Positions 18,613-21,854 of a stretch of DNA of 64,000 nt are shown one piece after another. The stretch's first letter is position 1. Every line of letters starts with the position of its first letter. The notes beneath the pieces are model-generated. The model did not search any database. It was given only the letters and a program-made list of their open reading frames with translations, and had not been told where the DNA came from. Source of the DNA: Schmidtea polychroa (lineage: Eukaryota); contig CM097885.1 in NCBI GenBank assembly GCA_044892525.1, forward strand, positions 212,598,001 to 212,662,000. The letters run 5' to 3'. The position numbers and the translations under genes were made by a program.

Positions 18613-19368
18613 ATGTCCAAGGTTCCAACCACCACAGTCATACGTCCCTGTTTCTCTTGCGCGGACAAAAATCAATTAATACGGACGCTCCAGACCCAAA
18701 ATGGCCTCCTGAAAAAGAAATCCGACCATTTAGAAGGAACGTACTTTTCCCCGAGCCAAATGAAGGAGGTGCGAACGAGACTTACCCGAGTAGAAAAGTG
18801 TAGGGACAATGTGCTAGAAGAGAATCGCGCTTTACGCACCCTTATTAAGAAGCAGTCCGAAGCGTTACATAGGGTGTTCGTACAAGCTTCAGTCACACGC
18901 AAGATCGTCAATATCCCACTCGCGGAAGAAGACAATTTGTTCCCGTCCCACCATCTTTCAGGGATCTCGTCGATGAAGCCATTAAACCAGGCCAACCTAA
19001 ACCAATCGAGCATTCCTCAGCCGACAATTCCAGCCGAAGTCGTCTGTACCGGCACCAATCGCGCTGACCCCAGAATAGTGGACTTAACAACCCCGGTCAC
19101 TCTTCCGGAGGCGAAAAATATCAAGAAACGCCGGCAGCCATCTAGGGCCGAGCGTACCAAAAGAAGGAGGGACCTTCAGGCCGAAAGAGAAGCAGCCCTG
19201 ATCGCCTCTGTTCATGTGTGAGCCCCAAAGCCTCCCGTGGAGTCCACTTCGCATACCCTTCCTATCTTCCGGGTAGTCCCACCCGTCGATCCCTCATGGG
19301 AAGAAAATGCTAAAGACTTTTTCGATCTCGATGAGATCTTTGCCGGAGCTTCTCCGAATACCTTGTGA
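18613..19368 (+). CDS. EGTWFSP-family protein, copy C (202-aa ORF; TGA at 19219 interrupts a longer ~251-aa frame)
   Basis: PCFSCADKN...LEGTYFSPSQMK...KKRRQPSRAERTKRRR. After the TGA the same frame continues 48 codons, including WEENAKDFFDLDE, to a stop at 19366-68. Acceptor ttattcag lies 9 nt before the ATG. Confidence 0.8.
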
Positions 19369-20241
19369 TCTACACCCCTGTTCATTCTCGAAAATTGTAT
19401 AATTCTGTAAATGTATTTTCTTATAATAGTTCGTCAATATATTTTTAATGTTGTGATTTGACAATTTAAACAATTTTGAATGTTTGATGAATGATGGATG
19501 TTTGAACATGAAATTGGGTAGTGAATGATAAGAACAATGGGTGGGAAAGATTGGATAAAGCTGAATTCAAGGAAAATAGAAGTAATAATAATGTGGTGGA
19601 ACTTGCGGTTGAATGCGAAATAAAGACAAAGTTAGTGAGTTGAGTGTTGTGGTGGAGGTTGATTGCAAAGCGGAATGATACATGAAATCTTAGAATAATG
19701 TGAACGACGTAAGTCCTTCTATCGGCAGTCGAGTGTTTGTTAAGTCGAGTTGCGATGGGGAGTAGTCCTAAGGCAGGGGCTCACCTGCTACATCGTAGCT
19801 CACCGACATGGCACAGTACCAACATGATGCAAGTCATGGGTGTCATGTTCGGAGTATGATCGTGTGGGTTTTGGTTAAGGGTCCCGTGGAATGATGACAT
19901 GCCGTGTGTGTGGTTAGGACTATCAACCCCTAGTGTAACAAAGTATTTTTGACCCGACCCAAGACCCAGCATATATATAGAATTAACTTAACTCATTTCC
20001 CCCAATGTTAAAATTTTTCATATAGCCATCTTCAAGGGACAGATAACTCTTACTAGGAATCACTTGTAGCGAACTCAGAAAACCAAGAAATAATGTAAAT
20101 TTGATTGTTATTTTTAGTTTATTTACTTATTTTGTCTATTATTAATATAATTAGGATGTTGATTTGAATATTGTAATTTTACAACCATTAAAATATTAAT
20201 ATTTAAAAATGCGACTCTCTTCTCTTTATAAATTTTTTCAG

Positions 20242-20541
20242 GATGATGATTACATTTTTATATTGTTACGATAATGATAAAATTCAGGAAAAGATATAGT
20301 TAATGTATGGGTAAAGGTTCTACATGAATCAGGAGAGGTAGGACTTCGGAGGAACATTTATTAGCTGAAAAAGATGAATTTTGTCGAGTATGTAGTAGAG
20401 ATGTTAAACAAGAACAATAAAATCCACCCAGTATGAAGTAATTGAGTTGAAGAAGCATTGAATAAACAAGAATGACAAATTTCATAAAATGCAGGGATGA
20501 ACTGATTGGAATGAGCTTGGGAGGGTGTGAAATTTCAGTAG
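20242..20541 (+). pseudogene. Degenerate ORF split by insertion of unit D (continues at 24234-24520); possible BIR-like relic
   Basis: Acceptor aattttttcag at 20241. Fragments FLYCYDNDKIQ and C-x6-(TGA)-x9-H (CMGKGST*IRRGRTSEEH). The TSD of unit D joins the two halves. Confidence 0.3.
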
Positions 20542-21118
20542 TGCTGGGGTAGTGCTCGGTTGACTTCAACCCACTTACGCGCTCGTCTAGGAGATGGGTG
20601 ACCATTTCGCTTACATTAATTATACCCCTGTCAATCCTGAGCAGAACCCGGCACAACCTACACTCCAACATAGCACCCGTGAATTGCTTCACGTTGGAAA
20701 TGTGCTATGCCGGCGAGACTCCAGTAAGCAGGTGAGCCCCTGCCTTAGGACTACTCCTTACTGAGGCCTCGACTTCCTTTCCCTGACTGCCGATGGAAGG
20801 TCTTACGTCATAATCGCATCATCCAACCTCACTTTTCTTCGACACCGAATTAGATGCAAATTGACTATTACTTTTCGAACTGCAAAATCTCTACTTGATC
20901 TATAAAACTACTCCCAACTACCTGCAAAAAGTACTTAAACACAAAAACGAAGAACTTGATAACCAAAAACTGTTTTATTTTGTCATCGAAATACAATATA
21001 CGGATGAGTGACATATAACATACACAATTTCATAGAAAAACGGAGTAAGGAAAGAGTTAGACCATGATAGTTCAGTTTGACCATTTCTACACCGCTCGAT
21101 TGCTGTATGAGGAGGTTT

Positions 21119-21854
21119 TCATTTCTCCCATCCTGCGTCTGCTAATAATTCATCTAAGTCGAAAAACTCGGAGGCGTTTTCCTCCCACGTTACACCAGCG
21201 GCTGAGATGATTCGCCCTGGGATCCCTACTGTCAGATCGATCGTTGAAATTAGTCGTATTGTCCGAAGGTGGTTTGTCCTGTCTAACGGCTGCTCGCTCG
21301 CGTTGTTTCTTTTTGCGTTCAGCCCGCGACAGTTGGCGACGCTTGGGTTTCGGAAGGCTTGGCACATTCGATGGCGCTGTAGATGTAGACGCGGATGTTG
21401 ACAACACTTTACTGACTCCAGTAGTAACTACTTCGGTCGGCCTGGGAGAGAGGTCAGCCTCTACGCATTCACGACAGGACTTCTTGGATGAAGGTGGTGA
21501 ATTGAACGAAGGATCGTGGTGGACGGGGAAGATATTGTCGGCTTCGTTAATGGGAATACTTACAATCTTCAGGGTAGTGGCTGCTTGTATATAAACTTTA
21601 TGCAGAGCTTCTGACTGCTCTTTGATCAAACTGCGCTGAGATCTGCTCTCATTTATTAGGGCATCACGACAATGCTCACTACTGTACAGCTTCTTCTGCA
21701 CCTTTTTCATTTGTACTGGGCTAAACCATGTACCTTCGAAATCGTCGATTTTCTTTTTATATCGACCGATCTGGGCCTGTAAATCTCGGATTATAGTGTT
21801 TTTGTCTGCGCAAGAGAAGCAGGGTTTGATAGGAGACTTCGCGCTTGGCAACAT
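21119..21854 (-). CDS. EGTWFSP-family protein, copy D (234-aa ORF; one frameshift before the acidic tail)
   Basis: ORF 21150-21854 has PCFSCADKN, FEGTWFSPVQMK and KPKRRQLSRAERKKK. The overlapping frame 21119-21367 ends WEENASEFFDLDELLADAGWEK. Acceptor ttcattacag lies 8 nt before the ATG. Confidence 0.8.

Follow-up and report, generated by a model that had tools for sequence, protein, structure and literature searches.

The question raised by this locus is whether two open reading frames (ORFs) that end prematurely have lost a common C-terminus and, if so, what that C-terminus may have done. Within a 64,000-nucleotide stretch of the Schmidtea polychroa genome (assembly GCA_044892525.1, contig CM097885.1, positions 212,598,001 to 212,662,000 of the forward strand; hereafter the window), two copies, C and D, of a gene carried by long terminal repeats (LTRs) are oriented tail to tail. 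A sequence-only reading had pointed to an acidic-aromatic tail, WEENAxxFFDLDE, shared by the two copies and hidden behind a different lesion in each, and had proposed an LTR-encoded transactivator analogous to Tax or Tas. Because the copies face each other, the interval assigned to this tail (19222..21260) spans both of them. The tail is the normal, selected C-terminus of a 247-253 amino acid (aa) accessory protein encoded in the LTR of a Burro-like Gypsy element, and it is broken in both window copies.

The frame of copy C (18613..19221, plus strand) specifies a CxxC motif, two long helices predicted to form a coiled coil, a disordered linker with the sequence IVDLT (19075-19089), resembling a SUMO-interacting motif (SIM), and a basic helix (19126-19173). 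It is interrupted by a single TGA at 19219-19221, behind which 48 further codons, ending in WEENAKDFFDLDEIFAGASPNTL, lead to a stop at 19366-19368. This tail (19222..19368) contains the motif WEENAKDFFDLDEIFAG, whose Trp codon (TGG) at 19297 is in frame with ATG 18613, as had been stated, and the conserved core R-phi-phi-x15-D-phi-x-x-phi-phi (phi, hydrophobic residue) at 19270-19341. On the minus strand, copy D extends from ATG 21854 to a short frame-shifting deletion near 21245 (21245..21854), the lesion being defined relative to all four close copies compared. Its tail (21119..21244, minus strand), out of frame with its own ATG, carries the SIM-like TIDLT, the conserved core and the motif WEENASEFFDLDELLAD, with its Trp codon at 21187 and a stop at 21119-21121. 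The overlapping frame in D and the dissimilar lesions (a stop in C, a frameshift in D) were therefore as described in the sequence-only reading. The two tails align with a score of 82, compared with a maximum of 45 in 5000 shuffles and at most 40 elsewhere in the six frames of the window.

To place these lesions in a family context, the organism's own genome (781 Mb, four large contigs, AT-rich) was searched for further copies, as the earlier reading had advised, and the uninterrupted form proved to be the commonest. Intactness was counted over the top genomic matches (30 C-like, 30 D-like and 25 E-like); the C query lacked the tail, so that the C count is unbiased toward it, and all three sets are biased to copies with an intact N-terminal part. 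The frame was open through the tail in 49 of these 85 copies (C-like, 16/30; D-like, 21/30; E-like, 12/25), which encode 247-253 aa, in good agreement with the ancestral length of approximately 245-250 aa suggested previously. In 9 C-like, 2 D-like and 5 E-like copies the tail follows in frame behind a stop, and in 5, 7 and 8 copies, respectively, it was lost through frameshift or deletion; a stop at the codon affected in copy C was present in none of 29 other C-like copies. Pairwise ratios of nonsynonymous to synonymous divergence (pN/pS), calculated over all in-frame copies and with intervals over codons only, the pairs not being independent, were 0.10 for the C tail (0.04-0.20, 24 copies) and 0.06 for the D tail (0.03-0.11, 23 copies). 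These values are similar to those of the coiled coil (0.09 in C, 0.07 in D) and the basic helix (0.09 in C, 0.13 in D), the linkers being at 0.37-0.56. Judged by these ratios, three blocks are under purifying selection, namely the CxxC motif with the coiled coil, the basic helix and the tail. Copies C and D are ordinary decayed insertions of a selected gene, and an assembly error at 19219 or 21245, if there were one, would leave this family-level result unchanged.

The motif that first drew attention to the tail is not its conserved core. Among 68 distinct intact ORFs (16 C, 29 D, 20 E and 3 G), WEENA is present in 40 of the 45 C and D copies and in none of the 23 E and G copies, whereas the wider pattern R-phi-phi-[PSAT]-x14-[DNE]-xxx-phi-phi, with fixed spacing, occurs in 67 of the 68, a count that is partly circular in its phi-x-x-phi-phi part, as the ORFs were gathered using a loose form of the last part of the motif. 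On this distribution, WEENAxxFF is a two-lineage variant of a D-phi-x-x-phi-phi helix which has an upstream partner element, R-phi-phi. The shared tail claimed earlier is thus real in C and D but does not represent the core of the family, and the tail as a whole, lacking from the A/B lineage described below, is by its phylogenetic distribution a module of one main lineage and not of the whole family. In all 68 intact ORFs the last 39 residues are net acidic (charge -2 to -8).

An AlphaFold model of an intact D-type copy (12-row alignment, mean predicted local distance difference test [pLDDT] score of 64) places helices at residues 13-39, 46-98, 175-195 and 236-241, joined by linkers with a pLDDT below 50. 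The resulting order is a CxxC motif, two long helices, a disordered linker, a basic helix and a short terminal helix, and the basic region followed by an acidic, hydrophobic tail that had been described from copies C and D is recognizable in it as a basic helix resembling a nuclear localization signal (NLS) and an acidic, predicted-helical phi-x-x-phi-phi C-terminus. The basic helix, located approximately 70 disordered residues C-terminal to the coiled coil, was identified by pattern in 63 of the 68 intact ORFs and also in A/B copies. The sequence VDLT or IDLT, which we take to be a SIM-like motif, is present in 43 of 45 C and D copies, at a position that differs between these two lineages, and in none of the 23 E and G copies. 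Sub-lineages are only approximately 35-45% identical, and the split of the A/B lineage has 100/100 support in an unrooted tree. Members of A/B, which are abundant and include young paired LTRs, keep the coiled coil and the basic helix without an ATG and without the acidic tail. Their homology to the other copies starts at a conserved YAG, and their coiled-coil exon begins one base into a codon behind it (L121:3887-4384 and other A/B loci); an upstream coding exon that would supply the start of this ORF was looked for and not found. The A/B LTRs also harbor a second ORF of approximately 125 aa (L128:3313-3681, L202, L205 and L212, with a remnant near window positions 11530-11960), which has no match in Pfam or the ESM Atlas. 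It ends in RGRPRK, presumably an AT-hook-type motif, and contains what we take to be a psiKxE site; this partner ORF points to a possible nuclear, chromatin-level role for LTR genes. The window itself contains further decayed family members, namely two A/B-type copies and two E/F-type fragments (2647-2931, minus strand; 12290-12742 and 26769-27400, plus strand).

The gene is embedded in large repeated elements. Each of five protein queries yielded at least 150 matches in the genome (the best 150 of 3300-7000 candidates each), many of which form same-strand pairs spaced 26 or 31 kb. Four D-type pairs correspond to LTRs of 3.75-3.93 kb with 98.7-99.9% identity, TG...CA ends and 4-bp target duplications. 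The ORF lies inside the LTR in all four, and likewise in E- and B-type pairs, which upholds its designation as an LTR gene (LTRs of approximately 3.7-3.9 kb in elements of approximately 30 kb). D-type elements measure 29.8 kb, E-type approximately 30.4 kb and B-type approximately 35.7 kb, with multi-kilobase LTRs, 4-bp duplications and TG...CA ends throughout; in D-type elements the 5' LTR is followed on its 3' side by a primer-binding-site-like sequence, which we take to resemble a tRNA-Pro site. In the three elements scanned, Gag, a mononegavirus-like fusion protein, protease (PR), reverse transcriptase (RT), RNase H (RH) and integrase (IN) are encoded between the LTRs in one reading direction, the fusion glycoprotein (PF24664) being placed between gag and protease in each. 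Among the cargo domains (Pfam, E 0.01), MATH and ankyrin were found in all three elements, as was a RING domain, with BIR in the B-type element only and Bcl-2 in none; in D- and E-type elements a RING-finger ORF separates gag from the primer-binding site (L061:8783-9295 and L219:499-993).

Giant Gypsy-like elements of approximately 30-36 kb, designated Burro or GYPSM1, have been described in planarians (PMC6431247). The elements reported here share with them their size, the zinc-knuckle Gag, the fusion protein between gag and pol, the PR-RT-RH-IN order, and the ankyrin, MATH and RING domains (PMC6431247), as well as BIR, here in the B-type element only; in contrast, the available part of the published text names no protein gene within the LTR (PMC6431247). 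The elements are Burro-like giant Gypsy elements, an assignment by architecture and published description and not by identity to the named Burro-1 to -4; this likeness by itself points to a planarian host. Copy C resides in an LTR at 16054..19971 (plus strand) with TG...CA ends, the 3' LTR of a 5'-truncated element of this kind: homology to other copies ends at 19971, and its start word, together with the flank ahead of it, agrees with the junction that full elements show at their 3' LTR. It is preceded by a remnant of the 3' internal region (13884..16053, plus strand) with accessory ORFs at 13945, 14444 and 15238, which has 77% and 71% DNA identity to a full element (L063/L064). Copy D resides in a solo LTR (20542..24229, minus strand) flanked by a perfect 4-bp target-site duplication (20538-20541 and 24230-24233). 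Beside the element of L061, a 1413-aa ORF with a weak endonuclease VII match (L061:198-4436) probably represents a Polinton-type gene near which the element inserted.

Where the gene lies relative to the LTR promoter bears directly on how it may be expressed. A reverse CCAAT box, a TATA box, a predicted first exon of approximately 28 nucleotides (nt) and a GT donor are located 330-560 nt from the LTR start. In LTR C the predicted promoter (16390..16472, plus strand) comprises the CCAAT at 16390, the TATA at 16418 and the first exon at 16445-16472, followed by the donor, and in LTR D (23820..23905, minus strand) the CCAAT at 23905, the TATA at 23878 and the first exon. The CCAAT-TATA pattern occurs exactly twice on both strands of the window, once per LTR, and in 25 of 46 LTR-containing stretches, the misses including truncated and A/B loci. 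The ORF begins 1.8-2.5 kb (about 2.2 kb) downstream of the TATA box, behind a predicted splice acceptor which in copy C directly precedes the ATG (18590..18612, plus strand): of the 66 intact copies that have an ATG, 65 show an AG no more than 9 nt from it (two further copies are without ATG), and in 20 of 20 E-type copies the AG is directly adjacent. Of 21 LTRs in which the promoter pattern was matched, 20 have an AATAAA at a distance of 270-465 nt downstream of the TATA box, in most cases preceded by a second donor-like word. An AATAAA also follows the ORF in 25 of 26 D copies, 6 of 13 C copies, one of three G copies and none of 20 E copies, which lends weak support to a poly(A) signal at that place; the chance level of this word in the AT-rich DNA is high (20-44% of shuffles in the two 3' untranslated regions tested). 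If the promoter-proximal AATAAA acts as the poly(A) signal, the ORF would lie in the U5 part of the LTR, and otherwise in R, being downstream of the predicted promoter either way. Because it follows a conserved CCAAT/TATA promoter and a conserved splice acceptor, the gene is likely to be an early spliced product of the LTR itself. A position in U3, like that of Nef or Sag, was considered and dropped, as the promoter was found near the LTR start. When RNA contigs of four runs were compared with a young LTR, no usable splice joint was recovered, nor was a processed, fully spliced copy present among the loci examined. Exon 1 recurs as a copy at the end of the first intron, with three tandem 51-mers in C (window 16445-16577 and 23798-23847), and several LTR copies (L065, L066, L222, L229 and L235) hold a single exon-1 copy, as expected from the copying of spliced RNA.

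Four blocks survive between diverged sub-lineages of the LTR: the promoter region, a GC-rich block, the ORF and a structure near the LTR end. The GC-rich block (16925..17131, plus strand), kept between sub-lineages whose flanks have diverged, is predicted to form a sense-strand RNA structure within the predicted intron (alifold, -14.1 sense versus -4.2 antisense; 16 copies). The structured RNA near the 3' end, at 19706..19855 in LTR C (plus strand; z -2.5), where it starts with a GTAAG donor-like word, and at 20662..20809 in LTR D (minus strand; z -3.15), exhibits many compensatory pairs (-28.8 sense versus -6.2 antisense in 41 copies under 90% identity). It has no match in Rfam at the gathering threshold or at E 5, and a ribozyme was rejected on that account. 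A 28-nt segment of it (window 19761-19790 and 20730-20757) does not vary among the C, D and E lineages and includes a 7-mer that recurs in the primer-binding site.

Homology searches placed the protein in no known family. No match was obtained in Pfam, in a word-indexed search of a 5.8-billion set (one intact protein, alignment A1 against shorter proteins only) or in the PDB by profile; in the ESM Atlas no homologue was accepted (best 0.85 and 0.77), and Foldseek gave nothing at E <0.001, only generic helical hairpins. A profile search of 1.84 billion representatives returned a single match (E 2.4e-4), a Lys/Glu/Asn-rich, thioredoxin-like-looking protein, which was rejected as compositional. 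In these searches, no homologue or fold match was found outside the own genome.

We propose, with a probability of roughly 0.4, that the gene encodes an accessory regulator acting in the nucleus and that its tail is a helix docking on a coactivator, by which the protein would boost expression of its own element, transactivation being in our view the single most likely role of the tail. The LTR promoter, approximately 0.4 kb from the LTR start, would produce a short spliced early mRNA by joining the donor near the start to the acceptor before the ATG. The protein would oligomerize via its predicted coiled coil and enter the nucleus via its basic helix, by which it may in addition be anchored to DNA of the LTR or to leader RNA, and the acidic D-phi-x-x-phi-phi helix would fold on a host coactivator and raise LTR output, a positive feedback of the Tas or Tat kind. 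A predicted phi-x-x-phi-phi helix is indeed found in an acidic disordered segment, and many acidic activation domains use this pattern as their binding core (PMC5435986). In a more elaborate version of this proposal, which we regard as doubtful, the transcribed (R/U5) portion of the LTR would hold a regulatory gene complete in itself. Its spliced mRNA would start at the promoter of the same LTR, and the protein would be an activator that is tethered to leader RNA by its arginine-rich helix and works via the phi-x-x-phi-phi tail. Intact solo LTRs, which are numerous, could then supply the regulator in trans, as promoter, acceptor and ORF all lie within the LTR, and retroviral-style feedback would have evolved independently in an invertebrate retrotransposon.

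Several observations weigh against activation as the role of the tail. The strict composition rule for activation domains (eq. 1: a 39-aa tile with a charge of -9 or lower and at least seven W/F/Y/L residues; PMC10550315) is passed by none of the 68 intact ORFs, and the relaxed rule (eq. 3: charge -13 to -8, at least six W/F/L residues, sensitivity 36-45%; PMC10550315) by 28 of 29 D copies and by 0 of 16 C, 0 of 20 E and 0 of 3 G copies, that is, by 28 of 68 overall and in one sub-lineage. As the authors of these rules state that their sensitivity is low (PMC10550315), this failure weakens the proposal without refuting it. E-type tails are weakly acidic and without the aromatics, and when E and G copies are pooled, the tail has a pN/pS of 0.45, little below that of the linkers (0.55-0.65). 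The young and abundant A/B lineage lacks the tail, the motif count is partly circular as noted above, and no recognizable DNA-binding domain emerged from Pfam or the AlphaFold model. A basic leucine zipper factor was rejected, since the basic region is not directly N-terminal to the zipper but lies behind the coiled coil. Promoter, splicing and expression, moreover, are all deduced from DNA sequence alone. A predicted complex of the tail with the host TAZ1 domain (score 0.01) was uninformative; an intron interrupts the host KIX domain. Of the activation-domain-like tail claimed earlier, its selected, acidic and predicted-helical character has stood, and its composition conforms to the relaxed rule in D-type copies alone; the analogy to Tax or Tas is not supported in the form proposed, there being no detectable homology to either in the searches above, and the gene lying downstream of the LTR promoter, unlike both.

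The conserved basic helix and the conserved leader RNA structures would fit an RNA-level role equally well, and a post-transcriptional switch of the Rev, Rex or CERV kind is a close rival that we hold to be possible. Starting from a default spliced mRNA, the protein would bind structured leader RNA as an oligomer, using its arginine-rich helix, and permit the unspliced genome of 26-30 kb either to be exported or to be transcribed beyond the promoter-proximal poly(A) site, the tail docking an export or processing factor. Every lineage, the tail-less A/B included, has the coiled coil and basic helix that such a protein would need, the arginine-rich motif, a putative RNA binder, accompanies predicted oligomerization helices, and of the two conserved sense-strand structures in the LTR one falls within the predicted intron, although such structures can be packaging, dimerization or priming signals. 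The AATAAA behind the TATA box of 20 of 21 LTRs would provide the site to be read through, but that word is frequent by chance in such AT-rich DNA. A Gypsy precedent exists in CERV of Cer1, which is made from a spliced mRNA and is required for genomic RNA export (PMC10309623), yet neither profile nor fold similarity to Rev, Rex or CERV was detected, and nuclear export signal (NES) patterns match the last 45 residues in only 4 of 68 (forward class) and 8 of 68 (reverse class) ORFs.

A role in escaping silencing appears unlikely. Here the SIM would bind SUMOylated silencing components and the tail a chromatin factor, shielding the LTRs from histone H3 lysine 9 (H3K9) methylation guided by PIWI-interacting RNAs (piRNAs). 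The link between SUMO and piRNA silencing comes from other animals. The SIM-like motif of 43 of the 45 C and D copies, the psiKxE site and AT-hook of the A/B partner ORF, and the repression of Burro elements by PIWI in planarians (PMC8532177) are consistent with it, but the motif is missing from all 23 E and G copies. We consider it very unlikely that the tail is a cytoplasmic trafficking motif, a FFAT-like VAP binder or an LC3-interacting region (LIR) that would link the protein, in the assembly or release of particles, to contact sites of the endoplasmic reticulum or to autophagy. Matching patterns do occur ([ED]FFDxx[ED] in 35 of 45 C and D copies, a loose LIR pattern in 60 of 68), and the element encodes an envelope-like protein; against this stand a FFAT-like core in 0 of 23 E and G copies, a family-wide pattern that is the helical phi-x-x-phi-phi, and a strong NLS-like basic helix. 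That the tail is a functionless leftover or a chance match, as its disruption in both window copies and its absence from A/B might suggest, is extremely improbable given a pN/pS of 0.06-0.10, a selection test that disfavours it, a spacing fixed over sub-lineages of such low identity, and an alignment score nearly double the shuffled maximum (82 versus 45).

Elsewhere in the window, an apparently intact 745-aa hAT-type transposase-like ORF (DUF4371; 61392-63629, minus strand), a truncated pogo/Tigger-type transposase (DDE_1, HTH_Tnp_Tc5; 8518-9240, plus strand) and an exon of the host acetyl-CoA transporter gene (Acatn; 36521-36841, minus strand) were identified. Two approximately 77% identical repeat copies starting with TGTTGGG (25501-26284 and 55531-56294), 30 kb apart with no internal ORFs between them, are probably LTR starts of another sub-lineage.

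The host element family was already known; the present analysis adds the evidence that selection acts on the tail, the definition of its actual conserved core and its restriction to a single main lineage. To our knowledge, dedicated regulatory proteins are a hallmark of complex retroviruses and have hardly any counterpart in Gypsy elements, with CERV as the precedent. A literature search disclosed no LTR-internal gene for Burro or other Gypsy elements, the original Burro description (Grohme 2018) being outside its coverage and an ORF in the figures or supplements of that work being possible; the main text of PMC13524379 contains no planarian terms. The gene may represent a retroviral-style accessory regulator in an unusual place, its function being a proposal: a selected accessory gene located within the LTR, past the promoter and not in U3, in thousands of candidate copies of the dominant retroelement of an animal group that serves as a stem-cell model. 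Should the tail prove to activate, elements that PIWI proteins have to keep repressed would possess a feedback switch open to experimental test, and solo LTRs could act in trans on host and element transcription.

The ORFs of mouse mammary tumor virus Sag and human immunodeficiency virus Nef occupy U3, ahead of the promoter, and it is from the 3' LTR that they are expressed. The gene described here resembles them as a coding sequence within the LTR behind a splice acceptor (predicted in the present case), but its U3 is predicted to be short (only approximately 0.4-0.5 kb), and the ORF, which starts 1.8-2.5 kb beyond the TATA box, falls in R or U5. Transactivator genes of the Tas or Tax type lie between env and the 3' LTR and use an internal promoter or pX splicing. 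With Tax of human T-lymphotropic virus and with foamy-virus Tas/Bel1 (PMC517496) the present gene shares small size, an accessory nature, a basic region, an acidic hydrophobic C-terminal tail and poor cross-species homology. Tas has a C-terminal acidic activation domain, shows little homology between species, and is encoded between env and the 3' LTR and expressed from an internal promoter (PMC517496), whereas the present gene is wholly within the LTR, downstream of the predicted LTR promoter; unlike Tas and Tax, it is present twice per element and in solo LTRs, and it has no sequence or fold similarity to either. CERV of the Caenorhabditis elegans element Cer1 (PMC10309623), like Rev, Rex, Rec and Rem, is comparable as an accessory protein from a spliced mRNA (predicted here) with a coiled-coil oligomerization region, a basic NLS-like motif and structured RNA nearby. 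It differs in its length of 517 aa, in exons common with gag and in its globular M and G domains (PMC10309623), and the present protein has no clear NES and no detected similarity to CERV, Rev or Rex. The acidic activation domains of p65 (TA1), p53 and VP16 are likewise terminal, acidic, disordered segments with a short predicted amphipathic helix (PMC5435986). In contrast to these, the composition rule is satisfied here in one sub-lineage only, and a second conserved element, R-phi-phi-P/S, stands at a fixed distance upstream of the tail helix, which suggests that the two may form a more specific docking module.

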